A stretch of 32,000 bases of DNA from Mycobacterium leprae TN (GTDB taxonomy: Bacteria; Actinomycetota; Actinomycetes; Mycobacteriales; Mycobacteriaceae). Within the stretch, counting starts at the first letter, position 1. Every line of letters begins with the position of its first letter. Below the pieces are notes generated by a model. That model was not told the DNA's origin and searched no databases. It saw only the letters and a program-made list of their open reading frames with translations. A program made the translations under genes and the position numbers. The DNA lies in assembly GCF_000195855.1 (NCBI RefSeq), contig NC_002677.1, forward strand, positions 2,100,001 to 2,132,000, in the 5' to 3' direction. Shown here piece after piece: positions 13,171 through 31,033 of this stretch.

Positions 13171-13299
13171 ATATCGCGTTCTTATGATCAATTTTCACTT
13201 GATTTTTCCGAGCAAAATATGGGGTCATTACCAGGTTAACGGAGTGGCTCGTTCGTTACAGCTGCGGATATAGGTGGCGCCATTATATGCATTGCCAAC

Positions 13300-14400
13300 T
13301 TAGGGACAATGAAATAAAAAAGGGGGGTGTACCTTTTTAGTTCTAGCCGGCCAGTGTGCGGGTCTTGTCTTCCACTGCGCAATTGACACTCTATTAGTGG
13401 CACCGGGTTAGATATAGCGGTTGCGTTTGACCGGAGAGCGCCCATCGATGACACGCTGGGCCTTAGTGACCTGGTCATTGATGCCACCCAGCGTTTTTCG
13501 GGACCGATCGTGGCGGTATTGGTAGTGGAGTGACCCGGTCGGGGATTTTACGGGCTTTTTCTGAACTCGTCGGCGACCACCGCTGGGTAATGAACCAGCC
13601 CGTCGGGGACCGCCTCTCTGGGGTGTTTGTCACACACTATTAGCGCACCACGTCAGGCGGGTGCGGAACGCTAGCACCGAAGATATAGGACAACCCGGCA
13701 GCCTGTAGGACGACCTGGTTGGCTTCGGAGATCATGCCGGCGTCAGCCCACCACGGTCACGTCGGTCAGATTGCGAGCGGTCTTAAATGCATTGAGGACC
13801 GGCACCATCGTGGTGGTCTCGGTTCGGTTGCCCTCGAACGCCGCGACATTGAGCAAAACCCGGTAGCGTCAGTGAACGCCCCAGGGTGATCTACGGGTCC
13901 AACCGGCGTTCCTTCGAAAACCCAAGCTCGCAGAAACCATCCCCCACACCTTCTCGAAGTACAAGGTTGTCACGTCGTAGAGCACCAGACTGGCTGTACT
14001 CAACTTACGCATGAGCAGCTCACGGGGTCGAACGTTGCTGCCGGAATGCAGGTTTAGCGAAGACTGGTACTGGTAGGAGTCGATTCAGTGTCCAGTAGGC
14101 CGCCGAATCAACTCCTGTCTCCTTGAACACACATAGTGTATCGACCTTGTTCGTCGGTTCGATGACGTGTACCGTATACCATGGCGCGAACTACCTCATA
14201 GCCGCCAGCGGCGGCATCGAAACCCAGCACCTCGTAGTCTTGACACAACGCCTTCCACAGGTGCGCTGGCCTGGACACCATGATCTCCAACGGGGCGCCG
14301 GACGACTCGGGACGATCCAGGCTTTGCTGACTGGCAGCCAGACATTACATTACATTGATTCGCCACAGTCTTGAGCACCTCCAACTCCACTTCTTCGTGC
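13300..14400 (-). mobile_element. IS1634/IS4-type DDE transposase pseudogene
   Basis: Minus-strand reading across several frames gives PAHLWKALCQDYEVLGFD, GDGFCELGFSKERRLDP*ITLG, FEGNRTETTTMVPVLNAFKTARNLTDVTVVG* and then ADAGMISEANQVVLQAAGLSYI. The last junction is a 1-nt frame slip at about 13745. Further on it reads YQYRHDRSRKTLGGINDQVTKAQRVIDGRSPVKRNRYI*. No terminal inverted repeats were identified. Confidence 0.6.
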
Positions 14401-14639
14401 GCAGAACCCAGGTGCCCGCTCTTGCGTGAACCCCACCGTGGGAACCAAACAGCCTACGCAGCCGTAGCCCCCGAAGCCATCTTCACGGTGCGTCCATAAG
14501 CCACCACCGCACTCCTAAAAACCTTCAATTAGTAGCCCAGATTCCGTCCCGCCAACGACGAAAACACCAATTCAAAAGCCTGCAGACAACCGATCACCGA
14601 AGAATGGCCAAAGTCAGGTCTGATGTGTTCGCTAGTGTT

Positions 14640-14935
14640 GTGTGTTGGTGATTGTTTTAACGTTTGATTTTGTTGAGGGGGTGTCTGCGGTCTGGGTTCA
14701 GGTGAACGGTGTGGTGTGTTCGTTGTAGGTGGGGATCGCGGTTTCGAGGTTGTTGATATCGGTGAACGTGTTGTGGCGGGTGATGGTGGTGAAGAAGATT
14801 TTGGTTATGTGTCAGCTATGAGCAGCTTGTCGGTGTGAAGTGCAGTGTGGCTTGCTGGTTATCCTGTAGCCAGGATCGGCTGCTGGGGGTTTGTGGGTTG
14901 GCGTAGTTGTCGCAGATTGGGGAATTGCACAAAAC
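14640..14935 (-). mobile_element. IS630-family transposase remnant (C-terminal about 100 codons only)
   Basis: The minus strand reads CDNYANPQTPSSRSWLQDNQQATLHFTPTSCS* (compare DNy..H....v..Wl...p.i.lHFTPTsaSWlN). After a frame change it reads ITKIFFTTITRHNTFTDINNLETAIPTYNEHTTPFT*TQTAD (compare PF.WtKtaD). There is no room for the N-terminal part before the neighbouring gene at 15121. Confidence 0.5.
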
Positions 14936-14978
14936 CGTGGTCAAATACTGGCAGATCGACTAGATCCGTCCAGCGTTC

Positions 14979-14990
14979 ATATATATATAT
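14979..14990. repeat. (AT)6 dinucleotide microsatellite
   Basis: Read directly: ATATATATATAT at 14979-14990 in non-coding sequence. Confidence 0.9.
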
Positions 14991-15120
14991 GAAACTGCCA
15001 CCAATTCTCAACCTCACAATCCCACCCTAATGCAATCGACGATAACGGTCAGGCAGAAACTACCAAAATTCTTGATCAGCGCTTACAAACCCAAGCAAGT
15101 TTGGGGTCGGCGTTCGGGTT

Positions 15121-16992
15121 TTACGATCGGTGTATCTGGTGTTCGCTCGGCTCCGGGCTTTGACATGTGCCAAGCGCCATGGGTATCACACCTTTTGCCA
15201 GCAGAGATTCCATCGCCGCACCGTCGACGGGACGTGAGAGCAGAAAGCCCTGCGCACGGTTGCACCCTAACTCCAGCAGCACCTGCGCTGCAACGGCAGT
15301 CTCGACGCCTTCAGCGACGACTTCGAGTTCAAATTCCTTGGCTAGCGCCATGATCGCCCGCACGATCGCTAGATCACTTGCGTTGCTGCCCAGTTCGGCC
15401 ACGAAGCTCTTATCGATTTTGATGGTGTCCACCGGCAGGGATTTCAAATGGGTCAACACGCTGTAACCGGTACCGAAGTCGTCGATAGCCAGGTGCACTC
15501 CGACCTCCTTGAGTCCGGCAAGTGTCTTGCGAGTGGCATCGATGTTTTGGACCACAACATTCTCTGTGATCTCCAGACACACCATGCTGCCGTCGAGACC
15601 GAACTCGTCGAGAGTGCCAGCCACGTTGTCAACGAAACCTTCAGCAACCAACTGTACTGGCGAGACATTAATGCGCAACAGCGCATCAAGTCCCACGCCG
15701 GCTGAGCGCCATCGACTGAATTCCGCACATGCCGAGTGCATCACCATCCGGCCCAGCTTGCCTGCTAGATTAATCGATTCCGCCACTGGGATAAATGAAT
15801 CGGGAAATAGCAACCCCCGTGTCGGGTGCTGCCAGCGCACCAAGGCCTCGGTGCCCAAGACTTTGCCGGTACTCATGTCTACCTCAGGAAGGTAGTGCAG
15901 CACCAGGTCAGTATCGATCATCCCTGCTAAGTGCAGTTCAACCTCAGTTCTCAGCGTATGCTGTGCGCTGATCCCGTGGTCAAGAACCACGACCTTGCTG
16001 CCGTCGCTTTTCGCCGACAGCGCCGCGTGATCAGCCCAACGTAGCAGATCCGACGTGGTATCCCGTCCCGGAAGACCGGTGGCAACACCAATGCTGACGG
16101 TGCGGGTGAGTATTTCGCCGTCGATCACCACTTGCTTTTGAAGCCGCGTCTGCAAGCGATGGGCAAACGACTCTGCAACATCAACCGACACCGACTCAGC
16201 GGGCACTACGACAAACTCGTCTCCGCCGAAACGGGCAATAACCGTTAGGCTTTCAGCAGCCTCGCGCAGCCTATCGGCGAAGACCTCGATCAGCCGGTCG
16301 CCGGCATTGTGACCCAGGTAATCGTTGACCGCTTTGAGCCGATCGAGGCCAAGGAACAGCAACGTCACCGGGCCGCGCTGACCGTCGGCCAGCCTCTCAT
16401 CGAGGTGCGCGATCAGGGCTCGGCGATTCAGCAGCCCTGTGAGATCATCGTGTTCGGCCAGGTAACGCAATTGTTCTTCGGCAACGATGCGGGCCTGCAG
16501 CTGGGCGAAAAGAGTTGCGATCGCCTGCAGCGCGCGCAACTCATCGTCGTGCCATTCCCGGTCGCCGTACTTAACGAATCCGAGGACACCGGTGGTGATT
16601 TCTCCGGACAGCAACGGAACACACGCCAGGGAAACAGCCGGCACAGAGGCGCCCTCCTCGATGCGACGCTGATAGTCGGCATTGGCCGGCTCGGGCCGCA
16701 AAACCGCCGGTTCTTTGAGATACTCGGCCATAGCAAAAACCGGGTCGGCGTCGGCGAAATACACCACACCGATCGGGTCAGGATCAGGCACGTAGTCACG
16801 CGGCGGCCATTCCACGATCAGCTTGGTCGCGTGAATATCGTGGTTATTGTGACGAAGAAAACTCACATCGACGCCGAAGTGCTCCACCAGGATAGCCAGC
16901 ACCCCTTCGCTGATCGTGACCGCGGTGGCCGCTGTTGCAGCCATTAACTTCGAGGCCACCCTAGTGACGAGTTCGTCCAGGGACCGGGTCAT
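15121..16992 (-). CDS. GAF-GGDEF-EAL bifunctional c-di-GMP synthase/phosphodiesterase (Rv1354c-like, 623 aa)
   Basis: Intact 623-aa ORF with ATG at 16992, 17 nt after the upstream gene's TAA. It has a GAF-like N-terminus. GGDEF domain: EHDDLTGLLNRRA...GHNAGDRLI...ARFGGDEFVVV. The EAL domain carries every canonical block: GTEALVRW, RINVS, LEITEN, AIDDFGTGYS, KIDKSFV, VAEGVET, QGFLLSRP. Confidence 0.95.
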   Translation of the reverse strand: MTRSLDELVTRVASKLMAATAATAVTISEGVLAILVEHFGVDVSFLRHNNHDIHATKLIVEWPPRDYVPDPDPIGVVYFADADPVFAMAEYLKEPAVLRPEPANADYQRRIEEGASVPAVSLACVPLLSGEITTGVLGFVKYGDREWHDDELRALQAIATLFAQLQARIVAEEQLRYLAEHDDLTGLLNRRALIAHLDERLADGQRGPVTLLFLGLDRLKAVNDYLGHNAGDRLIEVFADRLREAAESLTVIARFGGDEFVVVPAESVSVDVAESFAHRLQTRLQKQVVIDGEILTRTVSIGVATGLPGRDTTSDLLRWADHAALSAKSDGSKVVVLDHGISAQHTLRTEVELHLAGMIDTDLVLHYLPEVDMSTGKVLGTEALVRWQHPTRGLLFPDSFIPVAESINLAGKLGRMVMHSACAEFSRWRSAGVGLDALLRINVSPVQLVAEGFVDNVAGTLDEFGLDGSMVCLEITENVVVQNIDATRKTLAGLKEVGVHLAIDDFGTGYSVLTHLKSLPVDTIKIDKSFVAELGSNASDLAIVRAIMALAKEFELEVVAEGVETAVAAQVLLELGCNRAQGFLLSRPVDGAAMESLLAKGVIPMALGTCQSPEPSEHQIHRS

Positions 16993-17009
16993 GGTCTTAC
17001 CATAACCGC

Positions 17010-19175
17010 TTAGCCCGACAGCAACCGGATGCGTTCAAAACTTCGGCGGCTCCGCACCGACGCAGGCCCCGCGACAGTCAATCGCAACACCAACACGAGG
17101 GAGTTATCGGCCGGGATACGCGCCAGACTGCGGAAGTCTTTGCCCAGTTGACCCAATTCATCGGCGAACTGTGCAGATAATGCGTGTAGCTCGTCGACAC
17201 TGTGAGCGTAGAGGAACACGGGCGAAATCGGCTGTACTGCGAACCCATACCGCTGCGCAGCGACCCATATCGCCTCGACAGCCGATCCACCACGAGCGTA
17301 GTCCGCCAACGCGTGCCCGGGCACCGAGATCACGGCAAGCGCCGAACTGGCCACCACACGATCATGGGTGTCTTGACCCAGCGCGGCGCCGACGTTCCAC
17401 TGCGCAAGGAGTTCCATAACGTCCGTACGACGAAGCACGTCGAACGCAGCCAACTGATGCCAATCCATTTCGAGGCTACGCACATCAATACCAGTGTCTG
17501 GAAACGAATCTCCCGGCCAACGCAGCTCCGAGATCATCTCCTCGTGAAGCCGTGGCGTAAGATACCTCGACCGGTCGGCAGCAGCCAGAATGGTTGCAGC
17601 TCGGACGATGTCATCTCGCGCAGTTAGCAGGTGCAGCCGTGCACCTTCGGCCACCGCGGCCGCGTGCAACACATCAATCGTCTCGGTCAGAACCATTGTT
17701 GGCTTGCCATGATTGCGATTAGTTTCGCGGACCAGCATCGGCTCATAAACTGCTGCTAAGTCGGGGTTCCACCCATCACCTAAACTTAAGGTGACCCGCA
17801 GCGGCGCACCGTCAACATTTTCAGCCAGGCTTACCGGCCCGAGCACACCATGGGCAGCAGCCGCAACCCTAGCGTTGAACAACGCTGCACCCACCGCAAC
17901 GGCGCTGCCGCGGAAGCCGACGTCGAGGCTGTCAGTATGTTCTGGAGCAATTCGAATCACCAAGGCATCAGGCCCGGCGTCGATGTGCCAGGGCTGTAGG
18001 TTTCCACCCGACGGTGCGCGGATCGCAGCAGTGGCAATAACCCCCTCAATACCGGACAGTGCGAGTTCTGAACACTGCGTCGGATTCGCGGGACGATGTC
18101 GGGCCATGTCCGGCTCGGTGAGCTGATTGAGCGCCGAGGCGACGTCAATACGCGCTCGCCCCGAGCGCAACTCCTCCCCGAGACCGATTCGGCGTACCGC
18201 CTCGGCCACCGCAGTAGCTCCCAGCGCCACGTCCCCTGCCAACTGGGGCCAGGTCGACAGCGAGCGATCGATCTCGACCAACGTCGTCGCAGTGCGCGGC
18301 GACAACCGTTCGGCCTCCAGAAAGCGCAAAATATACGGAATTTTCTCGCGGTTGCTCATCTCTGGAAGCAACCGGATATCAAGCTCACCTAGCAGACCGT
18401 GCAGAATCGAACGCCGCGGCTCCAAGTCGAACCGCTCAACATCAATCAGGCCGCGGTCACTGGTCGCCATCAGTACCGGAATACCGTGGCTGCGGGCTCC
18501 CTCTCGCAGGAGAGCCTTTATGTCCAGCGAATCGCACTGCTCCACCACGACATCGAGGCCCTCCAAGAACTGATCAACGGTGTCGAACGTCAAACCATTG
18601 TCAAACACTCGCACTGTCAGATACGGGTCCAGTTCAGCGATGCGGCGCGCAGCTACCTCAGCCTTATTGAGCCCAAGATCGAACACCGTGGCAGGAACTC
18701 GGTTGAGGTTGGATAGTTCGAGGCGATCGAAATCGGCCAAGCGCAGTTGTCCGCACAGGCCCTGGGCGGCCAACGTGTGGGCGATCACATGTCCCACACT
18801 TAGCCCAGCGACGCCGATGTGTAGTCTGCCCAACGCAACTTGCTCCTCGGCGGTGATCTCGTTGCGGTTGCGGTCCAACCGTACCGCCCGAAACCCGCGC
18901 GGACCCAGCATCGATACGACCACATGCCGCCATGGGTAGTACACCCACCTACACGGTTCGGCGATCAACTGCGGATCGGGCGTGGGCAGCAAGCTAAGCA
19001 ATTCCTGCAGCTGTCGCTCATGATGGTCGACAAAGTCAACCTTGGAATCAGCCCGCAGCCGCTGCAGCACCGCAGCATCAGCGGGGTCGTCAAGGGCCAG
19101 AACCCGAGCGTACGGGCTCACATCACGCTCATCACTCACCCTTGCGGCTCCCCTTGGGTTGCACCCATACGCCAA
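17010..19175 (-). CDS. moeY: ThiF/MoeB (E1-like adenylyltransferase) domain fused to an Acg-type nitroreductase-like domain (MoeY/Rv1355c-like)
   Basis: Intact 721-aa ORF from a TTG start. A GTG at 19139 preceded by AAGGGGAG is an alternative start. ThiF block: IGVAGLSVGHVIAHTLAAQGLCGQLRLADFDRLELSNLNRV...VVVEQCDSLDIKALL. C-terminal half: AAIRAPSGGNLQPWH, ETNRNHG and LTPRLHEEMISELRWPG, as in the Acg/Rv2032-type tandem nitroreductase fold. Confidence 0.9.
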   Translation of the reverse strand: MAYGCNPRGAARVSDERDVSPYARVLALDDPADAAVLQRLRADSKVDFVDHHERQLQELLSLLPTPDPQLIAEPCRWVYYPWRHVVVSMLGPRGFRAVRLDRNRNEITAEEQVALGRLHIGVAGLSVGHVIAHTLAAQGLCGQLRLADFDRLELSNLNRVPATVFDLGLNKAEVAARRIAELDPYLTVRVFDNGLTFDTVDQFLEGLDVVVEQCDSLDIKALLREGARSHGIPVLMATSDRGLIDVERFDLEPRRSILHGLLGELDIRLLPEMSNREKIPYILRFLEAERLSPRTATTLVEIDRSLSTWPQLAGDVALGATAVAEAVRRIGLGEELRSGRARIDVASALNQLTEPDMARHRPANPTQCSELALSGIEGVIATAAIRAPSGGNLQPWHIDAGPDALVIRIAPEHTDSLDVGFRGSAVAVGAALFNARVAAAAHGVLGPVSLAENVDGAPLRVTLSLGDGWNPDLAAVYEPMLVRETNRNHGKPTMVLTETIDVLHAAAVAEGARLHLLTARDDIVRAATILAAADRSRYLTPRLHEEMISELRWPGDSFPDTGIDVRSLEMDWHQLAAFDVLRRTDVMELLAQWNVGAALGQDTHDRVVASSALAVISVPGHALADYARGGSAVEAIWVAAQRYGFAVQPISPVFLYAHSVDELHALSAQFADELGQLGKDFRSLARIPADNSLVLVLRLTVAGPASVRSRRSFERIRLLSG

Positions 19176-19466
19176 GCCGACGTAGCCGGGTGCCAGTTTC
19201 GATCATCTGGCCTCCAATCGACGGCTCAGCTGGAAGGTTGCAGGTCCAAATCGAGCCGTCGACAACCACAGTAAACGTTGCCACCAGCGGGAAATTATCG
19301 GCCAGCAAGTGCACTGCAGCTCGCCGAATATAACGTAGCTAGCCCCAGAGTAGCCTCCGAGCCCGAGCCCGCAAAACGCCCCCCGATGTACACTCCGGGA
19401 CCGGCGGCGAGTTGCTGTGCAGGTTGATCACTGGCCGGCTTCGGCGGTCGCTGTGCAGATTCCACT

Positions 19467-20174
19467 CTATGTGTTCGTGTCGCGCAACAGCTCGCGCGTC
19501 TCAGCAAGCATTATTGATAGTTGTTGCGGTTCAGCATGGTTAGCTAAGGTACGGCGGTCCCACCAAATCATCTTGGTTCGGTAACGTTCATCCGGGTATG
19601 CAGCCACCGGGATTTTCGCTGCTACTACTCCCCCCGATGAACGCCACCGGTCCAGCACATGGGCTGCCGCGGTCGCCATAATGAACTGCACCCCTAACAA
19701 AGCCATGACTGTAAACGCGGGGCGCGCTAAGGCCTTGGCAATTAAACCACTCTGATGGGAGTCGCTGTCAGCCCATGCGGTCTTTACTTCCACGACCCCA
19801 AACGGCACGCGATCATTGATCATCTTGCGCACTGCGGTCAGTCCGGGATTACCTGCCCACTCAACCACGGCATGCGAATCCTCAGCTGACCCCAGCGGAC
19901 CAATCACGCGCATTCCCCCAACCACCTGTCTTTGCATGTTTACCGCAGCGAAAAATAGCCGTGTGTCATCACCCGCGTCGGGGTCTAGAGTACACTCGAC
20001 TCCATGTTTGCTGTAGGTACGAAACGCACCGTCAAGATATTCATTCCATAACTTAGGATCAAGGGTGGGCTGCGATACCACAAGCTGACATTGTGCATCG
20101 GAAGCCCAGACACTAAGGTTTTCCCGAAGGCACAACCCTTGCGGTACAACAGGATCCAATTGGGCGGTGACCAT
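19467..20174 (-). CDS. Conserved hypothetical protein (Rv1356c-like by position); possible GNAT-like fold, function unknown
   Basis: Intact 235-aa ORF. ATG at 20174 is preceded by TTGGAGAATA (GGAG SD). Amino-acid composition is balanced. By eye there is only a weak resemblance to acyltransferase (GNAT/LuxI-like) layouts (VVGGMRVIGP...GVVEVKTAW...). No firm motif was found. Confidence 0.7.
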   Translation of the reverse strand: MVTAQLDPVVPQGLCLRENLSVWASDAQCQLVVSQPTLDPKLWNEYLDGAFRTYSKHGVECTLDPDAGDDTRLFFAAVNMQRQVVGGMRVIGPLGSAEDSHAVVEWAGNPGLTAVRKMINDRVPFGVVEVKTAWADSDSHQSGLIAKALARPAFTVMALLGVQFIMATAAAHVLDRWRSSGGVVAAKIPVAAYPDERYRTKMIWWDRRTLANHAEPQQLSIMLAETRELLRDTNT

Positions 20175-20235
20175 TATTCTCCAATCTGTATGAATATTAG
20201 GTAGTTATGCAAAACGTCATTGCATTTGCTATTAA

Positions 20236-20294
20236 TGGCAATAACTGGTAGAAAATTTCCTATCTTTGGCAATATCCAGCCAGTTTTTCTACAG
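20236..20294. promoter_or_regulatory. Candidate operator/promoter repeats upstream of the Rv1356c-like gene
   Basis: TGGCAATA occurs at 20236-20243 and 20267-20274. CTGGTAGAAAAT at 20245-20256 faces its near reverse complement GTTTTTCTACAG at 20283-20294. A third TGTAGAAAAT lies at 20417-20426. All are 60-250 nt upstream of the ATG at 20174, in 35% GC DNA. Confidence 0.2.
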
Positions 20295-21318
20295 CATGAT
20301 TTGAACTGTTATCGAGCCGTTTTAAGCACACTGCACGCAAATTTATCATTTAGCTGAATATTGCTATTTCTGCGCAGACATGTTGTCTTTCGATATCTGA
20401 ATCCACGACCATAGCGTGTAGAAAATAAAGCTAGATAATACGTGGTTACTTAACTGATCAGTAGTTCCTGACCCCGGTTAGCACTGCTATCGTCAATCAT
20501 TATTTCAACAGGTCTGCGTCGTTAGGCGCGATTCGTACAGAATTACTCGAGATAGCACATCAACCTTAAATTTGTCCTACTTGCGATATTTATCGCTCAG
20601 CACGACCAATTAATTACGGCTATCGTCGCGAGCTCCGATCTCTAACAAGCGACGCTGTTAATATTGCGAAGGTGGTCTGTGAACCCCCATCGATCACGCT
20701 CGACGAAGGTCATGGCCCGCCCTAGCCACTGGGCCTGGTGAGCCTATATATGCAGGTAACCGAGAGCCCAGATCTGAACCAAATCGGATCGAAAGCGCTT
20801 GCGGGACAAACGATAAACCCGAAGCTACAGCCAAGCCTTGGTCAGCAAAATAAACAGCGGCGACTTACAGTACCCACACCTACCGTATCAACGGGGAGAA
20901 CCGTTGTCGCTAACCGGAGAAGGTCTCAATAACGTCCTCGTCGACCTAATCTGCGAACCGTTTCACATAGTCGGCGACCTCCACGCCAAGATTTGTCGAG
21001 GTCAAGCATTATCACAACCATGCGTATACTTTCGCGAAACGAGGCAGCAAAGCGGTCCTCATCAAAGCTACCCCAAAATTTCTGTGGTTCCCCGGCGGGG
21101 AAATGCGTCCCCTCTACGCACCGCCCCGCCGGGTGTCATTTACAAACCTCAGCGATTTGCTCGCAATATCATTTGAGGTTTGTGACAGTTGATATTTGGC
21201 CTCGTCAATGAGGCCAATACAATATATGGTGGCCCTCGCTCGCCGCTACAACTAATTGACACGCGCCGCGGTTTGCTAGCTGCGAGCCACCATAGATTTG
21301 CTCTCACTATTCGACCTA

Positions 21319-22320
21319 CTACTCAGTGAAAAAATCGGCCGGTAGCGCTTTCGCAAAATGCCAGCCTTGGGCAGCGTCGCAGCCGAAATCACGCAACCTA
21401 GCAGCTTGACCGGGCGTTTCAACTCGCTTGGCGCAAACAATGATCCCAAGTTTGAAGGCAAGGTCAATCATTGCCCGGGTGATCTGTTCATCAGCCAACC
21501 GGCCACGGATATCACCACCGAGGTTCTCGATGAACTCGCCGGCGAGTTTGACCATGTCGACGGGTAAGTTGCGTAAATAAGCGAGGCTGGAAAATCCAGT
21601 ACCGAAGTCGTCGATCGCGATACCCACGCCTAACGCGGACAGCTCCTGCAGCCTGGTGATCGATGCCTCATCTATGCTCAGGCTCGCGTTCTCAGTGAGT
21701 TCGAGCCGCAACGCGTGGGCAGGCAGACCAGTTTCGCCAAGCACCCGCTCGACCATCGAGAGAAAACTGGGATCACGAATGTTGCGGGCCGAGACGTTGA
21801 CGCTGACGAACGGTCGCGGATTGGTGCTGTCGTCACGCCAGTTGCGGATATGTCGGCAGGCCTGCTCAATCACGAAGGTAGTGAGTGGTACTATCATGCC
21901 GTTTCGCTCGGCAAGGCTGATGAATCGCGCTGGGAGTAGGGTACCCAGCGTCGGATGCGCCCAACGCAGTAACGCCTCGACGCCGATGAAGCGTTTGTCA
22001 TTAAGCCGGACAATCGGCTGGTAGACGAGGAAAAATTCTCCGCGATCCAGTGCAGCAGGAATCACCTGCAACAGACCATCGTGGACGCTCCGCTGCTCGC
22101 GATCGTGATGGCCGTAAAACCATCCACTACTTCGGTCTTTTACCTCGCCACTGCCGCGCGAATCGGCTGACCTGTCACTACACCCATCCGGCAGCGAACT
22201 GCTCCGCATAGCACCCTCGATAGGCAATGTCGACAGGCATTCAATGTCGACGTACCGCAGGGCATCCGCAGATACGCCACCCGAATCGTCGCAACCCGCA
22301 ATTTCCGATGCTGACATCAC
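21319..22320 (-). CDS. Stand-alone EAL-domain protein (Rv1357c-like), with non-canonical catalytic blocks
   Basis: Intact 333-aa ORF with a GTG-ATG start at 22320/22317. EAL blocks: GVEALLRW, VSVNVSARN, LELTEN, AIDDFGTGFSSLAYL and QGWHFAKA. However, KLAGEF replaces K(I/L)D.sF and CAKRVET replaces AEGVET. Confidence 0.9.
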   Translation of the reverse strand: MMSASEIAGCDDSGGVSADALRYVDIECLSTLPIEGAMRSSSLPDGCSDRSADSRGSGEVKDRSSGWFYGHHDREQRSVHDGLLQVIPAALDRGEFFLVYQPIVRLNDKRFIGVEALLRWAHPTLGTLLPARFISLAERNGMIVPLTTFVIEQACRHIRNWRDDSTNPRPFVSVNVSARNIRDPSFLSMVERVLGETGLPAHALRLELTENASLSIDEASITRLQELSALGVGIAIDDFGTGFSSLAYLRNLPVDMVKLAGEFIENLGGDIRGRLADEQITRAMIDLAFKLGIIVCAKRVETPGQAARLRDFGCDAAQGWHFAKALPADFFTE

Positions 22321-23767
22321 GCCAGTTCATTCTCGTCTGAATTTACTATAGCTGGGCCACGATGCCTAGCTATTAACAAACTCTAGCGATGCTGCGCAGT
22401 GAAGATCATCAGTAGTATTACGTACAACTTGCCACTGTTCCACGTAGAGGACTCAAAGGCTGCTTGCCTCCACGCCCGAGCTACGAAAACAAAGGCGCAA
22501 ACCGTGCCAGTCTGCAGCAGAAAAATGACCTGATAATGAGTAACTCCGACTGACGAGCACTGCCAGCTACATCAAGACTGGCCTTAGTTGATTTAACTAA
22601 AGGTAGGCCAAATTCAGCTCCTTAGCTGCCGAATTTCCCTGTCAAACAAGTCAATACCTTACTGTCATCTGAAAATTGTTTATAGAATTATTAATTTGTG
22701 TGAAGATTGACTGTGGAATGCCCTTCGGACTTCGCTGCTGAGGAGCATGTCACAACCACACAGTGACACGGTGTGCGCAGCAAAATCTGTGCTGGATGCA
22801 AGCAGATGCGCTAATGCTTATTGTTCGGCGATAGCAAATGATGGGCTCTCATTTACAAGATTGATCCGAGAAACAGACGTTGTTGATGTTACCAAACATT
22901 TCAACACCCTTGAACCATGGCGAATGCACGATGAGAACACAGCTTCGGCAGGAACTACACGATTGCGCTGTCAAGTTGCGCAAGCTGGCCCACAACCTCC
23001 CGCACGGGGTAGGCGAGTTCGGGCTGCTGCGTTTGTCTGAGCATATGGCAGCAACCGCCGGCCAGCCGGTGCTGCAGCACTAGTTGGGCCGCCTCGACAG
23101 ATCGTCACGCTCTTCAGCGATAACCGCCCGTAGAATCGTGCACCAACACCGGCTCCTATGCACGGCAAGCAGGCATGTTCGCGCTCCAAATCGTTCGGAC
23201 AAACGGCACCCGAGCGATACGCTGCTGACAGCACGCACGCGAACCTGCACCCGCAATGACACGGCAACGATACGTGAGCTGAGTCGACTCCAAACATTGC
23301 TGCGATACTCACGTGACAACGATCCCAGCCCCCCACATCACCAGATGCACGAGGTGCTGTGTAACCAAAGTCAAACCTGTCAATCGTCACACGTAACCTG
23401 CGTACCGGCCACCGCGCTGTGTTCACCGATGAGGTTCCGCTGTATCTGTATAGAAACAGCATCATCGATGCGCACCACAGGCCACCAGCCCTAATCGACC
23501 ACGCCTAATTACTTTGACGGGGGTATCGGTTCTATGCTCAACGCCGATCTAGCGGTGCCCGCCGACGCCGCGTTAATCCTTGAACCAGTGCCGAACGGAT
23601 CCGGTCGGCACTGGTTCAGTTGGTCGCTAATGGGACACACATCCAGGTGCTATTCCCACAACGCCGCCTGGCACAAAAGTCGAACTCGGCGAAGTAATCG
23701 CCGCGCCAATCAACGGGGGCACAGCTATGGAGAGCACACGTATAGCAGCCGTAGAGAACGTCGCAAC

Positions 23768-26700
23768 CTAGTTGTGGCGCGCAGCTTCTTGCACGAGTTG
23801 GACGCGGGAGGTGAGGCCAAGTTTAGAGTAGATGCGTGTGAGATGGGTATGTACGGTTCGAACGGAGACGAAAAGCCGTGCCGCGATATCTTTGGTATCT
23901 AACCCCTCGCTAACGAGCCGTATTACATTGTGTTCGGCAGGGGTTAGGGATTCCCAACCAGTGGTCGGTCGTTTACGGTTGCCACGCCCGCGCTGTGCGT
24001 AGGTGATCGCGTCGTCGATGGGCATGGCAGCACCCTCTGCCCAGGCGGAGTCGAAATCCTTGCAGCCCATCGCGCCACGAAGCACCGCCACTGCGGACTC
24101 ATAGCCTGCATCCCAGACTTTGAAGCGGACCTCACCTGTCTTCTCACGTTGCGCGGACGCCGCACCGAAAAGACGCCCGGCTTGACGATGGTTGTCACCC
24201 TGGCTGATCAGCTCGGCTAACAATTCCATGCTGTCTGATATGCCCAGAGACGCCTGGATGTCGGCACCGCACGCAAGCGCAGCATGGATATCAGCTCGTG
24301 CCAGTTCTGGTTCACCCTGCGCCATAGCGATGCGCGCACGCGTTGTCAAGGCCGCCATTTGATGCCACCCAGTGGTCGCAGAAACACTATTGTCGGCGAG
24401 GCGTCGCGCCACGATTACATCGCCTCTTGCCAAAGCGACCGCCGCCATGAGTTCGAGGTGTATCGCTACCAGGCCGTGGTCAGCACCCAGGTGCGGCCGG
24501 CACGCCTCGCTGGCCTCGACAGCCGCGGCAACATCGCCCATAGCCAACGCCGCAAAAACCATTGCTGCATAACCAATACCTTGGTACACCCCACTTAATT
24601 CCGCTGCGGCTTCAACGACCAGGCCGGCCGTAACCAGGGCCGCGCTGACGTCGCGATGCACCAGCGCCCGAGTTTGGACGTACAGACCGAAAGTTCTCGT
24701 CACTGTATCGTGGGCAGCTTCAGCACCGGCAACAACTTCACCCGATCGTACGATCGCTCCGTCCATATCGCCCTGCCATAACTGTGCAATGGAGAGCAGC
24801 AAACGACACTGTAGCGAAACGAACCGATCCCCGATTTCTTGAGCGAGATCGTCGGCCGCCTCAGCTGCTGCTCGCAAAGCAACCGGGTCACCTGACACGC
24901 AGAATCCAACAACTCCCCAAAGCCGAATCTGGCTCAGTGTCCATTTATCACCTTGCGTTCGCGCGAGCTCAACCGCCTCGGCAAAGTAGGGCCGAGCCAC
25001 CTCCGTGTCATAGCCACTGCTGAAGCCGCAGGCAGTAAGCGCCCGAGCCAAAACAGCAGAGTCACCTATCTCGCGTGCCATGGTCAGAGCTTGTTGAGCT
25101 TGAGTGACGAGGTCACTGCCGTCTGGTGGACTGCTGGCCAATATGGCGTGGAGCATAACCTTGTTGGCAACCGCCCGAGCTAAAACCTCTTTGGGTGCAA
25201 CAAGATGCTCGATGTTTTTGTGTTCAAAGATCGAGTCGAACCAGGCCAACCCCTCATACATGTGGCCCCGACCAAACCAGATCGGCTGTAGTGAAGACGC
25301 GAGTTGCAGTGCGCCAGCGATATCGCCGGTTTCGCGGCTCCATGCGAATGCGCTACGCAGATTGTCAAGCTCGGTCTCAACTTGCTCAACAAGCTGCTCG
25401 TGGTCGATGTCTCCCGGAGTATCCAGCAAAGCCCCAAGTGCCATGTAGTGATCGCGGTGACGGGCAAGCACAAGGTCGACCTCATTGGACTCTTCGAGCT
25501 TCTTCATCGCGTACTGGCGCACCGTTTCCAGCAACCGGTACCGCGAGCCACCCTGTCTGCCTTCAACTATGACCAAAGACTTGTCTATGAGCATAGTCAG
25601 CCGATCGAAAACCTGATCAGGCTCCTCAAGATCATCGTGTCCAACCGCATAGGCCACCTTGAGGTCGAACGTCCCCGAAATTGCCGACAAGCGACGAAAC
25701 AAGGCCCGCTCGCTTTCGGTCAGCAATGCATACGACCAATCCATCGAGGCACGGAGCGTCTGTTGACGTCGCACCGCGGTACGCGCACCACCAGTCAGCA
25801 GCCGAAACCGGTCATCCAAACCATCGGCTATCTCAGTTAACGATAACGTACGTATCCGTGCAGCGGCCAGCTCAATCGCCAAAGGCATGCCGTCAAGGCG
25901 CTGACAGATCTCGGTCACGATCTGACGGTTGCCATCGGTAACACTGAAACCGGGTTGAACCAAGGCAGCTCGTTCTGTGAATAATTCGACCGCTTCGTCG
26001 GCAGGAGACAGCATTGAAACCCGCCATATGACTTCGCCGGCCACCCCGATCGGCTCACGACTGGTCGCCAAAATCGTCAACGACGGACAAGCGCCCAACA
26101 GCGTAGTCATCACATTCGCGCACACATCGAGAAGGTACTCGCAGTTGTCCAACACCATCAGCATGCGACGGTCACCGATGCACCGGCGCAGATTGTCTAA
26201 CACCGTAATCGGAAAGATGTCGTGATCGGTGTCCGGAGCTAGGTCGAAATACGACAGCTCACCACTAAACTCGTCTGCGACCCTAGCGACGACCTGTAAC
26301 GCGAGCCGCGTTTTTCCTACTCCCCCTGGACCTACCAGCGTTAACAACCGTTTTTCGGTCAACAGCTCTTGCAGTTCTTTGATCTGCGCAGCGCGACCAA
26401 CAAAAGTGGTGAGCGGCACCGGAAGACTTGGTCCGCCAGGGACAGTCCGGATACCTAGCTCGTGAAGATTTCTGCGCAGATTACGGTGACACAACTGCAT
26501 GACACGTACTGGCCGAGCCAGATCCCGCAATAGGTGACTGCCAAGATCCACCAGCCAGGTATCAGCGGGGAGCCCATCAACGACGAGATCTCCTGTGATA
26601 GATGACAACACCGTTTGTCCCCCGCATGCCAAATCGAGCAACCCTGCAGCCTGCACCATCATAAAAACCACATTATTGACATCATCGTTGGATATCTGAA

Positions 26701-27160
26701 CCTCACCGGTGTGCAGAGCGATACGAAACCGAACTGGTACGATCGGGGCCAGCTGCAGGTCTAATGCGCACGCTGTGGCGTCGCTAGCACGGGCAAACGT
26801 TGCGAGAAAGTTTCCCCTTACCCCTTGGACAACCTGTTGCACCCCGCCGTGAGCCGCGACAGCTTCTGACACCACACAGTCCAGGCGTGCGATTGCATCC
26901 GCTGCCTCATCGGGTTGTGTTTCGGACAGCTCTGCCAAGCCTTCGACGTCACCCAGAAACAACGTCACCGTGCAACCGCGATGGAGGTCCGTCGGTACAT
27001 CGGTCGATCTCAGCCGCGCCACCAGACATGAAGCCAGATAATCAGCGCCAACGGGTACTGGTTTCTGCATCTCGCCCAAAGAATACATGTCTCCCGACAC
27101 ACATTCGGCCGTACATGTTAACCACGGTCTTGTTCCGCGGAAATGCACAGTCTGCGCCAA
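23768..27160 (-). CDS. Large LuxR-family regulator: class III cyclase-homology domain + STAND/AAA ATPase + TPR-like repeats + C-terminal LuxR HTH (Rv1358/Rv0386 type)
   Basis: Intact 1130-aa ORF from TTG at 27160. ATG at 27088, preceded by GGGAGA, is a likelier start and would give 1106 aa. Cyclase-like N-terminus: VTLFLGDVEG...RIALHTGEV. Walker A is LVGPGGVGKTRLAL and Walker B is RMLMVLDNCEYLL. LuxR HTH: LTPAEHNVIRLVSEGLDTKDIAARLFVSVRTVHTHLTRIYSKLG. Confidence 0.9.
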   Translation of the reverse strand: MAQTVHFRGTRPWLTCTAECVSGDMYSLGEMQKPVPVGADYLASCLVARLRSTDVPTDLHRGCTVTLFLGDVEGLAELSETQPDEAADAIARLDCVVSEAVAAHGGVQQVVQGVRGNFLATFARASDATACALDLQLAPIVPVRFRIALHTGEVQISNDDVNNVVFMMVQAAGLLDLACGGQTVLSSITGDLVVDGLPADTWLVDLGSHLLRDLARPVRVMQLCHRNLRRNLHELGIRTVPGGPSLPVPLTTFVGRAAQIKELQELLTEKRLLTLVGPGGVGKTRLALQVVARVADEFSGELSYFDLAPDTDHDIFPITVLDNLRRCIGDRRMLMVLDNCEYLLDVCANVMTTLLGACPSLTILATSREPIGVAGEVIWRVSMLSPADEAVELFTERAALVQPGFSVTDGNRQIVTEICQRLDGMPLAIELAAARIRTLSLTEIADGLDDRFRLLTGGARTAVRRQQTLRASMDWSYALLTESERALFRRLSAISGTFDLKVAYAVGHDDLEEPDQVFDRLTMLIDKSLVIVEGRQGGSRYRLLETVRQYAMKKLEESNEVDLVLARHRDHYMALGALLDTPGDIDHEQLVEQVETELDNLRSAFAWSRETGDIAGALQLASSLQPIWFGRGHMYEGLAWFDSIFEHKNIEHLVAPKEVLARAVANKVMLHAILASSPPDGSDLVTQAQQALTMAREIGDSAVLARALTACGFSSGYDTEVARPYFAEAVELARTQGDKWTLSQIRLWGVVGFCVSGDPVALRAAAEAADDLAQEIGDRFVSLQCRLLLSIAQLWQGDMDGAIVRSGEVVAGAEAAHDTVTRTFGLYVQTRALVHRDVSAALVTAGLVVEAAAELSGVYQGIGYAAMVFAALAMGDVAAAVEASEACRPHLGADHGLVAIHLELMAAVALARGDVIVARRLADNSVSATTGWHQMAALTTRARIAMAQGEPELARADIHAALACGADIQASLGISDSMELLAELISQGDNHRQAGRLFGAASAQREKTGEVRFKVWDAGYESAVAVLRGAMGCKDFDSAWAEGAAMPIDDAITYAQRGRGNRKRPTTGWESLTPAEHNVIRLVSEGLDTKDIAARLFVSVRTVHTHLTRIYSKLGLTSRVQLVQEAARHN

Positions 27161-27266
27161 ATATTTGGAGAGAAACCGATTCTCGGTCGATCAAATTGCT
27201 GCCGACATCTCACAAGCCGGCAGACTTGGTAACCTGCGGCGAGTCGACATCTTACCGTGGGCGCCA

Positions 27267-27545
27267 TCACCTGTGCCCACTCAAAACCCCAGAGCCGATC
27301 ACCCCAGCGGTCCAAGGCAAGACATCAGAATACCCAATGGCGTGGTCTTGTTCAACGCACTGCCACGCGGCCGGGCTGAAACGCTGGCGTGTGACCACCA
27401 CTTCTCCTGTGCTCCTGATCTTCCTGGACTCAATCATCAGCACGCCAGCGTCATCGATGGCATACGACCCGGACGTTTCATGCCCGGTATCATCTGTTTC
27501 CAACCTAATGACCTGTCCGTTGCTCAAAGTTACGGTGACCATCAT
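27267..27545 (-). CDS. Hypothetical small protein (92 aa) immediately upstream of the LuxR regulator
   Basis: This is the internal ATG of ORF 27267..27608, preceded by AAGGAAAGG with 6-nt spacing. It reads MMVTVTLSNGQVIRLETDDTGHETSGSYAIDDAGVLMIESRKIRSTGEVVVTRQRFSPAAWQCVEQD... The composition is protein-like and beta-rich. I recognise no family, and it may be a chance ORF or a remnant. Confidence 0.3.
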   Translation of the reverse strand: MMVTVTLSNGQVIRLETDDTGHETSGSYAIDDAGVLMIESRKIRSTGEVVVTRQRFSPAAWQCVEQDHAIGYSDVLPWTAGVIGSGVLSGHR

Positions 27546-28859
27546 GTCCAACCTTTCCTTTGCTGCCGTACCACGACCCGCGCGCATCAGATACGACAGT
27601 CGCTGCATGGTGTTCGACCTTGAATTCCGTGCACAACGATCAGCTGCAACGAGGTTTATTTAGTCGAATTCCGGTGCCGAGGCAGCGTTGCCAACGGCGG
27701 TTTTGAGAATCTTCACCCCTATCCTCGCAAGCTTCGTGTAACACGAGTCCAACTACATCGGCGCAGCTACGTATTTGGTCCAGTCTCTATACGTAGAGTA
27801 AACGGGCATGACTAGCCCTCAGAATGGCCGCTGAACTGGCCAGCAAGCACTAGGCTACGGCAAATCCAAGTCGCTAATGGTGGGTACTGCAGGAAGTTGA
27901 TAATGCACCGGGGTCGCATTCCGTCTCAGCCACCGCTGCGGTCGCTACACTCAGCGCGCCACAAGATACTAAAGTCAAGCATACAGCACTAACAGCGTTC
28001 GACGTCGCTTCTGGACTAGACGATGTCTTCTTCGTTGCGGACGGGGGTGCATGAGATGCGCCGGAAGAAGTGTCGGTAGAAACGCTGTTGGTCATGAGGG
28101 CCTGGCAGCGTGCAGTCGGGTAGGTCAGCACAGACGTATCAGCTGGCGGCTGCTTACGACTTTGCACAACGGCGATTAGGATGACGGTGCCGCATTCGAC
28201 TGGCCTGGTGTCGCTGTAAATTGCGGCCGATTTTAGCGTGGTAGGTGACGAATGTGTTGCGGTAGCCATTGAAGAGGGACGAGTAGTTCGGCAGTAAATG
28301 AGGTAGGCGTTGATGTAGTTAAGTCGTTGGTGCAGTTAAGTTCTGAGCAAACTATACCGCCGGTGATACTGTGGTGGTGTCGCTATGTGGGGGTTTAGCG
28401 TGACGACACCGGGAAAGGTTGTGTCTGGCCTGCCGACCCACTAGAGGCATCTTCGATGTTACTGAGCACGGTGCCTGGACCAAACCCACTATTGGCGACA
28501 GTGGAAGCGTGGAATTCGCTGAACACAATACGCTTCGGCGGCAGAAGAACTCGGTGTAGTCCTGACTGGGGTGCAGTATGAAACTTAGCGGCGTACCAGC
28601 GCTGAACGTTATGTGGCTGAGCATATGCCGTATCAGAAATGACTGACTCATAACAGCATCGATAGCAGGATGCTGCGGCTCAGCATGAGGTCATGCCAAC
28701 GGCCTATGTGAGTGCGCTGGAGACAATGCCGACAGTGGGTGAGTTGGTAGCCAATCACACAGCACATGTAACACGTACTAAGTACGAATTTCGTTGGTAA
28801 TAAAAAGATTCCGATTGACGCTAATGAGGACAACTTGCGCGGATGTTGATCTAGGCTCC

Positions 28860-29656: not shown

Positions 29657-31033
29657 TCAGCATTCGACGATGTTGACCGCGAGGGCGAGTCCGCCCGCGG
29701 CAGTCTCCTTGTACTTGAAATTCATGTCCCGGCCGGTTGCCCTCATGGTGGCGATCACCTCGTCAAGGCTCACCCGGTGGGTACCGTCGCCACGCATAGC
29801 CATCCGAGCGGCATTGATCGCTTTGCCGGCCGAGATGGCATTGCGTTCGATGCACGGAATCTGGACCAGACCGGCGATCGGGTCACAGGTTAAACCGAGA
29901 CTGTGTTCCATCGCAATCTCAGCCGCGTTCTCGACCTGAGCCGGTGTGCCACCAAGGATTTCAGCCAAGCCCGCAGCGGCCATAGAAGCCGCCGACCCCA
30001 CCTCACCTTGGCAACCGACCTCCGCGCCGGAGATAGACGCAAGCTCCTTGTACAGCGAACCAATTGCCCCCGCAGTTAACAAAAACCGCACACTTGTATC
30101 GTCTGGGTCTGCCCGCCCAGCGGGACAGTAATGCTGTGCATAATGCAAAACAGCGGGAATGATGCCCGCCGCACCGTTAGTCGGAGCGGTGACCACTCTT
30201 CCGCCCACGGCATTCTCCTCGTTGACTGCCAGCGCGACCAGGTTCACCCAGTCCTCGGCGAACACTGGATCGCGATTCGGATCCTCGGCACACAGCCGCT
30301 CGTGCCAGGAATGTGCGCGGCGACGCACTTTCAGCCCACCAGGCAGGTAGCCGCCCTGAGCAATACCACGCTGAACGGATTGCGTCATGACGTCACGAAT
30401 ATTTAGCAGACCGGCACGTACCTCCTGCTCGGACCTCAGGCTTTGCTCGTACTCGGCCATCAACTCGCAGATTGACATTCCTCGCGTGGCCGCCAATTCT
30501 AACAACTCACCCGCCGAGCCAAAGGACACCCCACCAGTGGTCCATTCCGCGCCCTCGGGTGGATCGCCGTGTGCCACGACAAATCCGCCACCGACCGAAT
30601 AATAAGTCTCGGCGGCGAGCTTGGTTCCGTCGCGGGCGAGAGCAACGATCGTCATGGCGTTGGGATGCCGGTCCAGCACCGTCTGTGGACGCAGTACGAC
30701 ATCGGCTTCGGTGAACTTGATCACGATCAATCCACCCAGACAGATTGTCCCGGCAGCGCGCATACAGGCCAATCGGGTCACCATGTCATCGGCATCAAGC
30801 CTCTCGGGATGCTCCCCCTCAAGCCCTAACAGGATAGCCGACATGGTGCCGTGGCCTGCCCCAGTTGCCGCCAGCGATCCGAACAACTCGACACGGATGT
30901 CGCACACGTCCTCGAGCAAACCGTTGGCAGCTAAGCCATCGACGAAACGTGCTGCGGCGCGCATTGGACCGACCGTGTGTGAGCTGGACGGCCCTATGCC
31001 GATCGTAAACAGATCGAACACGCTGATGGTCAT
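29657..31033 (-). CDS. sdaA: L-serine dehydratase (iron-sulfur, single-chain)
   Basis: Intact 458-aa ORF reading [27 protein letters not shown]... with ...[20 protein letters not shown]... and ...[17 protein letters not shown]... These are the classic SdaA alpha+beta domain layout. ATG at 31033 has GAGG upstream. Confidence 0.95.

Follow-up and report, generated by a model that had tools for sequence, protein, structure and literature searches.

The closest described relatives of the locus treated here are the trzAS genes, which a Journal of Biological Chemistry (JBC) paper of December 2025 assigned to N-acyl-tryptazolone biosynthesis (PMC12856293). TrzA (Rv1356c of Mycobacterium tuberculosis) N-acylates L-tryptophan using short acyl-CoAs, and TrzS (Rv1355c) carries out the ATP-dependent cyclisation and the flavin mononucleotide (FMN)/O2-dependent desaturation of N-acyl-tryptophan, a chemistry shared by the homologues of M. 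smegmatis and Rhodococcus jostii RHA1 (PMC12856293). An earlier JBC paper, of 2023, had predicted Rv1355c-Rv1356c as a second acyl-oxazolone cluster, and the related oxazolone clusters tyzACB and oxzAB (PMC10404671) are not reported beside genes of cyclic di-GMP (c-di-GMP) metabolism. The physiological role of bacterial acyl-oxazolones has been called "a major unresolved question" (PMC12856293), and the ligands of the sensor domains of mycobacterial c-di-GMP enzymes are poorly known. Here we analyse a stretch of 32,000 nucleotides (nt) of the M. leprae TN genome (positions 2,100,001-2,132,000; hereafter the window), in which homologues of trzA and trzS lie among five intact minus-strand genes, three of them related to signalling. 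We consider it fairly probable that this is a composite locus, in which trzA, trzS and an adjacent diguanylate cyclase (DGC) gene are functionally coupled, and that it is not a module of five genes.

The five genes are ML1750c (open reading frame 1, ORF1; 623 amino acids, aa), trzS (ORF2, ML1751c; 721 aa), trzA (ORF3; 235 aa), ML1752c (ORF4; 333 aa) and ML1753c (ORF5; 1130 aa). In the ORF listing they lie at exactly the coordinates given by an earlier sequence-only reading of this DNA and sum to 9,141 nt, or 76% of 12,040 nt; published SNP positions in ml1750 and ml1752 agree with the genome coordinates of the window. That reading had also assigned the domain architectures correctly, including a cyclase domain in ML1753c that is seen by a search of the Protein Data Bank (PDB) and lies below Pfam detection, and it had proposed that all five genes work together. 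We instead find that the conserved unit is trzA-trzS-DGC and that ML1752c and ML1753c are clade-specific neighbours.

This distinction is drawn from a survey of 80 species-representative loci around Rv1355c homologues, all from Mycobacteriaceae and 76 of them evaluable, in which adjacency was counted from the coordinates of high-scoring segment pairs (HSPs). At 60 of the 76 loci a GAF-GGDEF-EAL gene lay downstream of trzS on the same strand, at 45 within 300 nt (median HSP gap 34 nt) and at 15 at a distance of 0.3-3.5 kb; the remaining placements were divergent or convergent nearby (4/76) or elsewhere within 10 kb (5/76). When only the 54 loci with at least 9 kb of flank on each side were counted, the DGC was found in 48, a P450 in 36 and trzA in 33. 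Since the next most frequent neighbours were only a TetR regulator (17 loci) and two methyltransferase families (13 and 8 loci), the pairing with the DGC is conserved even though general synteny is not. Furthermore, the DGC was present in all 33 loci having trzA (Fisher p = 0.002, with no phylogenetic correction). In 27 of these 33, trzA was convergent just past the DGC, which thus came to lie between trzS and trzA; the locus has therefore been rearranged without breaking the trio. By comparison, if a 6-Mb genome is assumed to hold 10 GGDEF/EAL genes, one of them would be met by chance within 10 kb to either side in about 3% of cases.

Beyond the Mycobacteriaceae, Nocardia farcinica carries trzA, trzS and a GAF-GGDEF-EAL gene in this order, the last being 56% identical to ML1750c. 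A tblastn search of plasmid records with TrzS further retrieved five Rhodococcus plasmids, large and either linear or circular, in which trzA (hidden Markov model, HMM, match 1e-85) is divergent from trzS and a GGDEF gene is convergent on trzA. The encoded cyclase is membrane-anchored, with a GGEEF motif, no GAF or EAL domain and ~30% identity in the GGDEF domain. Around this three-gene cassette the plasmids have nothing else in common except insertion sequence (IS) elements (IS3, IS256, IS30, IS6 and IS630 transposases), a setting that suggests a mobile cassette. Finally, a metagenome sample drawn independently, with trzA as anchor and the Rhodococcus sequence as lead, gave 21 contigs that extend at least 5 kb further downstream. 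A GGDEF/EAL gene lay within 5 kb in 18 of them, among these all 16 contigs with both trzA and trzS; the three negative contigs also had no trzS. EAL-only or LuxR homologues were found near trzS in none of the Nocardia, Rhodococcus or metagenome loci examined. Outside the M. tuberculosis/M. leprae lineage, the co-occurrence on which the sequence-only reading had staked its module thus extends to the families of ML1750c, trzS and trzA, and not to the other two.

The M. leprae members of the trio are readily identified. TrzS (exact protein match to CAC30704) matches the NCBIfam 'Rv1355c family' (NF005901) over aa 15-715 with 1052.6 bits against a cutoff of 476. Its N-terminal part contains a Pfam ThiF domain (4.7e-24, aa 101-238), for which a PDB search gave as nearest solved structures the E1-like cyclodehydratase TcdA (3e-11) and ThiF (5e-5); aa 381-665 match an Acg-family FMN oxidoreductase (3e-29), the Pfam nitroreductase match being weak (8.4e-4). 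The protein is 58% identical to Rv1355c, 78% to its M. haemophilum and 80% to its M. decipiens counterpart. D215, R535/R537 and Q648 are invariant in an alignment of 13 sequences and, with near-matching numbering, may correspond to Asp217, Arg540 and Gln651 of the M. smegmatis TrzS. The M. tuberculosis TrzS (Rv1355c, L081 10690-12837) was itself a sequence outlier, with at most 61% identity to any other TrzS in the set, and this divergence might be related to the non-detection of tryptazolones in that species.

The trzA gene precedes trzS on the same strand by ~290-330 nt. Over 230 aa its product shares 73% identity with Rv1356c, and it matches the TrzA-family HMM with 4.4e-121, with no match to any Pfam or NCBIfam family. 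An AlphaFold2 model (predicted local distance difference test 80.4, predicted template modelling score 0.80) has a GNAT fold, and Foldseek matched it to BjaI (1.4e-6), RpaI, MesI, the N-acyl amino acid synthase FeeM (6e-5) and many GNATs. The gene is missing from the original TN, Br4923 and Kyoto-2 annotations, as only AWV, OAR, OAX and WP accessions are listed for it and no CAC, CAR or BBC ones. Its stop codon (19467-19469) is polymorphic within M. leprae: a 235-aa allele occurs in 227 contigs and a 248-aa allele, with a Trp codon at the stop position as in M. lepromatosis, in 20. We considered whether the shorter protein marks a pseudogene, as relatives have ~251 aa, and rejected this: only a C-terminal tail of ~13 aa is absent, this tail is not conserved among relatives, the ratio of non-synonymous to synonymous substitution rates (dN/dS) is 0.11, and the 248-aa allele exists.

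ML1750c (CAC30703/JK2ML_1750, exact protein match) has Pfam EAL (9.9e-66), GGDEF (1.6e-33) and GAF (1.5e-7) domains, and its motifs GGDEF256, EAL382, EITEN474, DDFGTG504, KID525 and QGF581 are intact; it is thus expected both to synthesise and to hydrolyse c-di-GMP, as diguanylate cyclase/phosphodiesterase activity is published for Rv1354c and for the M. smegmatis enzyme MSDGC-1 (PMC2994820). It begins 17 nt past the trzS stop codon and, given this spacer and the conserved order, the two genes are most likely co-transcribed. Conservation of the GAF domain across 47 copies adjacent to trzS (70.5%) is similar to that of the EAL domain (72.0%), and 42 of the 47 keep both the GGDEF and the EAL motif. 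The trzS-adjacent copy of M. haemophilum (L083 12130-13965) has GRDEF in place of GGDEF, and additional paralogues of that species keep GGDEF.

Which paralogue stands beside trzS differs between species. The full locus of M. decipiens reads LuxR (minus strand), EAL, trzA, P450, trzS, a first DGC (DGC1), two convergent methyltransferases and a second DGC (DGC2). M. leprae kept trzA, trzS and DGC1 and lost the P450, the methyltransferases and DGC2; M. tuberculosis lost DGC1 and kept the other paralogue, Rv1354c. The two species have thus retained different DGC paralogues, each directly after trzS. Rv1354c and ML1750c match different M. haemophilum copies: ML1750c is 63% identical to Rv1354c versus 85% to the trzS-adjacent copy, and Rv1354c is 77% identical to the second copy. 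These identities place ML1750c as an out-paralogue, not an orthologue, of Rv1354c, in agreement with a published phylogeny (PMC9248898). The equation of the five genes with Rv1354c-Rv1358 that the sequence-only reading had made thus holds at the level of families; gene for gene it fails at ML1750c, and Rv1358 lies on the opposite strand.

How might the three products act together? By homology to the characterised enzymes, the trzA product would N-acylate L-tryptophan with a short acyl-CoA, and TrzS would cyclise the N-acyl-tryptophan with ATP and desaturate it with FMN and O2, so that M. leprae would make an N-acyl-tryptazolone. ML1750c, most likely on the trzS transcript, would make and break c-di-GMP. 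In the mechanism that we favour, the sensor domain at the N-terminus of the cyclase may then perceive the tryptazolone or its N-acyl-tryptophan precursor, either by itself or through an intermediary, and the adjacent enzyme would in this way convert a lipid signal into a c-di-GMP level, as in the RpfF/RpfR system discussed below. Within the coupled-trio reading, direct sensing by the cyclase, an idea taken from that analogy, is a tentative proposal. ML1752c and ML1753c would be non-obligatory additions of the M. tuberculosis/M. haemophilum/leprosy clade, which may feed the same c-di-GMP pool.

Several observations weigh against a coupled trio. The published link between trzAS and c-di-GMP amounts to a single sentence remarking on adjacency to rv1354c and rv1357c, and M. 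tuberculosis cultures gave no detectable tryptazolones (PMC12856293). A GAF-GGDEF-EAL gene was absent near trzS in 7 of the 76 surveyed loci. Furthermore, trzS also occurs in a second class of locus, together with a P450, TetR, a dienelactone hydrolase and a methyltransferase, found on three Mycolicibacterium/Mycobacterium plasmids and in six other loci; trzA and a diguanylate cyclase are both absent for 8-10 kb around. The sampled organisms all belong to the Mycobacteriales, and shared ancestry inflates the counts. The GAF domain of M. smegmatis DcpA reportedly binds GDP (Chen 2018, cited in PMC8846402). The co-transcription of trzS and ML1750c is deduced from a 17-nt spacer, and a scan of positions 14500-27800 found fewer sigma-70 promoters (4 versus 6.4) and terminators (9 versus 12.3) than shuffled sequences, because of which it is uninformative on operon structure. 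Finally, among 154 M. leprae genomes (Benjak et al.), ML1750c, ML1753c and ML1752c rank with the most polymorphic genes, ML1750c with 17 non-synonymous changes to 1 synonymous, ML1753c with 9:0 and ML1752c with one homoplasy; the signalling arm could thus be relaxed or re-tuned.

With these points in mind, trzAS and the c-di-GMP genes could be neighbours by inherited synteny alone, each having survived independently. This would fit a sample from one order, in which an ancestral adjacency may not yet have been broken, the trzS loci that have no DGC, and a DcpA GAF domain for which a ligand, GDP, is already reported. It would also fit the losses of M. leprae, which comprise the P450, the methyltransferases, the second DGC, a GNAT, a nucleoside deoxyribosyltransferase and a PAS-GGDEF gene. 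About half of the ancestral locus is lost, which is near the genome-wide rate, and survival through gene loss, the argument on which the sequence-only reading built, is therefore weak evidence. Likewise, an intact island amid pseudogene tracts is ordinary for M. leprae and not beyond chance, since about half of its genome is reportedly non-coding. However, mere synteny does not readily explain why the DGC stays beside trzS while trzA is found either upstream or convergent, through gain and loss of P450 and methyltransferases and the paralogue replacement of M. tuberculosis, why it reaches 48 of 54 loci when families beyond the core reach at most 17, or why trzAS on Rhodococcus plasmids is accompanied by a GGDEF protein that is built differently, in contexts rich in IS elements and otherwise unshared. 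Together with the low chance expectation given above, this makes the absence of any functional link rather unlikely in our view.

Alternatively, the coupling could run in the opposite direction, with c-di-GMP or the DGC controlling tryptazolone synthesis, or both arms could obey one promoter responsive to a cue such as starvation or oxygen, the lipid in either case not being the ligand of the cyclase. The order of trzS before the DGC, with a spacer of ~20-35 nt, suggests a single transcript; TrzS needs O2 and ATP, so its output could report the energy or oxygen state; and GDP binding by the DcpA GAF domain would be compatible as well. Nevertheless, a single shared promoter cannot be the general reason for the linkage, since trzA is convergent on the DGC in 27 of the 54 loci and the Rhodococcus GGDEF gene is on a different transcript from trzS. 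Nor did TrzS or TrzA show a c-di-GMP-binding motif, although no search aimed at one was made. We judge this reversed or co-regulatory arrangement unlikely and retain the coupled trio.

The proposal of one interdependent signalling module of five genes, preserved as a block, draws on the leprosy bacilli and their relatives. M. haemophilum has the same five-gene order and orientation with the same large spacers, M. lepromatosis shares order and orientation, and separately fetched loci of M. tuberculosis and M. decipiens, like that of M. haemophilum, also have the EAL-only and LuxR genes. The dN/dS values of the five lie in the range 0.11-0.23, and the presence of ML1750c, ML1752c and ML1753c in the list of most polymorphic genes could reflect a shared selective pressure. 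In the full-flank survey, however, full-length EAL-only and LuxR homologues each occurred near trzS at 1 of 54 loci, in both cases that of M. lepromatosis, and M. tuberculosis (Rv1358) and M. decipiens have the LuxR gene inverted. Moreover, the genes, called consecutive in the sequence-only reading, are not strictly so: a P450 remnant separates trzA from trzS, and two spacers of 1.1-1.4 kb, diverging from M. lepromatosis at the neutral rate, isolate ML1752c and ML1753c. Other c-di-GMP genes of the ancestral locus have decayed. An interdependent block of five is thus improbable, and the claim of a five-gene signalling module is not supported. What survives of it is the intuition that c-di-GMP is linked to the E1-nitroreductase and the 'unknown' protein, which is strengthened, narrowed to three genes and turned into a testable hypothesis; the statement that such a link had not been described is partly outdated, since adjacency had been remarked upon and the two proteins themselves are now characterised as TrzS and TrzA (PMC12856293).

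ML1752c (CAC30705, exact protein match; 89% identical to M. haemophilum, 73% to Rv1357c) has a Pfam EAL domain (3.5e-70) with intact EAL, ELTEN, DDFGTG and QGW motifs and no GGDEF domain. Outside the clade its closest relatives are PAS-GGDEF-EAL proteins of ~580 aa, one of which, in M. asiaticum, sits in an unrelated housekeeping context (gap-pgk-tpi/secG-ppc), and ML1752c appears to derive from such an ancestor. Forms of intermediate length, 390-470 aa, occur in other mycobacteria, and stepwise N-terminal truncation is suggested as the origin of the Rv1357c/ML1752c family. No decayed PAS or GGDEF sequence was found upstream of ML1752c, even at E < 1; the truncation is therefore old or was a clean deletion.

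ML1753c, 89% identical to its M. haemophilum counterpart and 57% to Rv1358, matches Pfam GerE (1.9e-16, 59.8 bits) and NB-ARC (5.1e-6, 26.4 bits), both above a cutoff of 23.5 bits, and AAA_16 (6.1e-6, 27.3 bits) below its cutoff of 32.6. Its aa 62-224 form a diverged class III cyclase-homology domain, which has no Pfam match even at E 0.1 and was recognised with phmmer against the PDB (Rv1900c, 1YBT, 1.5e-5; Ma1120, ~1e-3). In the alignment to 1YBT the first metal-binding Asp is retained and the second is aligned to Gly, and the domain is probably a non-catalytic sensor or dimerisation domain.

Selection was assessed by aligning the window to the corresponding M. lepromatosis locus. The dN/dS values (Nei-Gojobori) of ORF1 to ORF5 were 0.166, 0.225, 0.111, 0.166 and 0.228, far from the value of 1 that would have undermined the sequence-only reading on this point; the dS of the five genes, 0.17-0.31, was close to the divergence of the non-coding stretches (Jukes-Cantor distance 0.15-0.20). 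Since M. leprae and M. lepromatosis separated, purifying selection has thus acted on each of the five. They are 91-93% identical between the two species with 0-2 indel events, as compared with 82-85% identity and 3-23 indel events in each of the internal spacers and the right flank, and 71.8% identity and 110 indel events in the left flank (8955-15120). In the latter every frame has 73-89 stop codons, and no open stretch is longer than 161 codons; it is decayed, in line with the sequence-only reading, which could read no intact gene there.

Within M. leprae, changes have recurred in the putative sensor. In the study of Tió-Coma et al., individual patients carried mixed alleles at codons P100, Q108 and R168 of ML1750, which are mutated in other genotypes as well. 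These positions (window 16488-16695) belong to the GAF domain or to the linker joining it to GGDEF and are conserved in 88%, 85% and 100% of 86 homologues, the GAF mean being 74%. Such polymorphism could mean that the cluster is decaying, open by chance or recently relaxed, so that its preservation is functionally meaningless today; the 17:1 and 9:0 ratios, the mixed alleles at conserved positions, the nonsense polymorphism that removes the trzA tail in most strains and the undetectable tryptazolone of M. tuberculosis could all be read in this way. Decay is hard to reconcile, however, with dN/dS values this low and nearly zero indels beside 19-110 events in adjacent non-coding DNA, with catalytic motifs that are all intact, and with a lost tail that is not conserved between species. 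In addition, 17 of the 18 changes in ML1750c are non-synonymous, more than its site counts would predict under neutrality (p = 0.038), and this excess, like the repeatedly hit codons, looks more like positive selection than drift. We therefore consider a decaying cluster very unlikely. Purifying selection over the long term, together with repeated recent changes in the sensor, points to re-tuning more than to decay, with relaxed selection as a possible alternative. A bolder extension of the coupled trio, conceivable if speculative, would be that N-acyl-tryptazolone or N-acyl-tryptophan is a signal of Mycobacteriales whose receptor is the trzAS-adjacent cyclase, through its GAF or, in Rhodococcus, its membrane domain; that M. 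leprae has kept this 'oxazolone to c-di-GMP' circuit; and that the P100, Q108 and R168 mutations are its adaptive re-tuning in the host.

Of the window as a whole, ~40% is intact coding sequence. The surroundings of the five genes were searched for remnants by tblastn of 1,344 neighbour ORFs together with stop-density counts (Table 1). The P450 remnant matched P450s of three survey loci and an M. haemophilum fragment, and M. decipiens has an intact 461-aa P450 between trzA and trzS. The methyltransferase remnant gave 36-41% matches to family-4 methyltransferases of five survey loci; the gene is intact at the same position in M. decipiens, in two copies, and in other species. The PAS-GGDEF pseudogene is 43-62% identical to an intact M. 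haemophilum gene (L083 20840-22111), so that M. leprae has lost a c-di-GMP gene immediately next to the cluster called preserved.

Table 1. Genes, conserved small ORFs and gene remnants of the window (positions counted from its first nucleotide)
Feature	Position	Strand	Description
ML1750c	15121-16992	-	GAF-GGDEF-EAL; c-di-GMP synthase/phosphodiesterase, bifunctional type
trzS (ML1751c)	17010-19175	-	Fusion of ThiF and FMN-oxidoreductase domains; likely start 19139 (709 aa)
P450 C-terminal remnant	19243-19402	-	tblastn fragments in two frames, between trzA and trzS
trzA	19467-20174	-	GNAT/LuxI-like amino-acid N-acyltransferase; Rv1356c homologue
ML1752c	21319-22320	-	Stand-alone EAL phosphodiesterase, Rv1357c family
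50-aa conserved ORF	22931-23083	+	Inside the ORF4-ORF5 spacer
ML1753c	23768-27160	-	Cyclase-homology domain, P-loop STAND NTPase, helical repeats, LuxR-type helix-turn-helix; Rv1358-like
92-aa conserved ORF (113 aa from upstream start)	27267-27545/27608	-	Directly upstream of ML1753c
TPMT-like S-adenosylmethionine-dependent methyltransferase, C-terminal remnant	14922-15089	+	Convergent on ML1750c; tblastn
PAS-GGDEF diguanylate cyclase pseudogene	11809-12764	+	Three tblastn HSPs in frames +1/+2/+3
Nucleoside deoxyribosyltransferase remnant	11250-11531	+	Matches M. haemophilum L083 20329-20814 (97 aa aligned, 42% identity)
Weak remnants of a P450 (27-32% identity) and a short-chain dehydrogenase	2509-3014; 140-919	+; -	No intact ORF
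L-serine ammonia-lyase gene sdaA, intact	29657-31033	-	TIGR00720, 640 bits; next clearly intact gene past the right flank

Past the cluster the sequence-only reading had seen one doubtful small ORF. It is present as the 92-aa ORF and is probably a real gene: its identity is 87% with the M. haemophilum and 92% with the M. lepromatosis sequence, and it has a dN/dS of 0.171 and is annotated by PGAP as a hypothetical protein, with no match to any Pfam family. The 50-aa ORF (PGAP WP_156511956), likewise of no known family, is 88% identical in M. haemophilum, 84% in M. lepromatosis and 59-65% in M. tuberculosis and M. decipiens, with a dN/dS of 0.46 computed from 15 changes only. A Pfam scan of nine other ORFs of the window gave no match. 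Elsewhere in the window, an acyl-CoA dehydrogenase region (6676-8954, minus strand) changes frame near 8322-8337, and M. lepromatosis has a single open frame of 893 codons for it (L001 18187-20865); in M. leprae the N-terminal part is read in another frame than the rest, although both parts are 91-94% identical in protein sequence between the two species. A frameshift of recent origin, or two separate genes, may account for the change.

M. leprae, genome-reduced and obligately intracellular, is unculturable. The retention of the trio despite loss of the P450, the methyltransferases and two other c-di-GMP genes, together with recurrent within-patient mutation of the sensor, suggests that the circuit matters in vivo. 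Likewise, the recurrence of the gene association in mycobacteria, Nocardia and Rhodococcus suggests that lipid and second messenger may work together; the near-universal interleaving of trzA/trzS and cyclase turns a one-line remark of the literature into a concrete hypothesis that is cheap to test. Dormancy, biofilm formation and a vaccine candidate have already been connected with the M. tuberculosis/BCG counterparts Rv1354c and Rv1357c/BCG1419c, and a lipid input into this pathway, if true, would have practical interest.

Compared with known systems, the M. leprae genes most resemble trzAS of M. tuberculosis, M. smegmatis and R. jostii RHA1 (PMC12856293), with which they share the GNAT-like and ThiF-FMN-dependent oxidoreductase families, adjacency and a common strand and, as regards M. 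tuberculosis, the adjoining GAF-GGDEF-EAL gene. Unlike the M. tuberculosis locus, M. leprae has a TrzS only 58% identical to Rv1355c and a decayed P450 between trzA and trzS. ML1750c has the same three domains and the same intact GGDEF and EAL motifs as Rv1354c/MSMEG_2196 (DcpA, MSDGC-1) (PMC2994820; PMC8846402), and is likewise the only enzyme of this type in its genome (PMC9248898). ML1753c and ML1752c have the domain order of the Rv1358/Rv0386/Rv2488c regulators and of Rv1357c (BCG1419c), respectively; ML1753c differs from the Rv1358 type in a cyclase domain below Pfam detection, in the metal-binding Asp absent from the 1YBT alignment and in its orientation, inverted with respect to Rv1358.

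A likeness to LuxI/LuxR also comes to mind, as the TrzA model is closest to the acyl-CoA-dependent synthases BjaI, RpaI and MesI, and a LuxR-family helix-turn-helix gene lies 3.6 kb from trzA. The resemblance is limited by template modelling scores of only 0.45-0.5 at 14-18% identity, and ML1753c had no autoinducer-binding domain match in Pfam or NCBIfam. A LuxI/LuxR-type pair of TrzA and ML1753c was therefore rejected, the LuxR gene moreover not being a conserved neighbour.

Our model is instead reminiscent of the RpfF/RpfR pair for Burkholderia diffusible signal factor (BDSF) in Burkholderia and Cronobacter (PMC6361424, PMC4698668), in which the gene of an acyl-signal synthase lies beside that of a sensor-GGDEF-EAL receptor, much as the trz genes lie beside their cyclase. 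The two differ in the signal (a cis-2 fatty acid versus an acyl-oxazolone), in the synthase (a crotonase versus a GNAT and an E1-FMN-dependent oxidoreductase) and in the sensor (PAS versus GAF or membrane domain), and ligand binding is proven for RpfR and hypothetical for the trz-DGC pair. By analogy, RpfF/RpfR offers the best model of how the trz-DGC trio could work, with a lipid made by one neighbour and perhaps read by the other.

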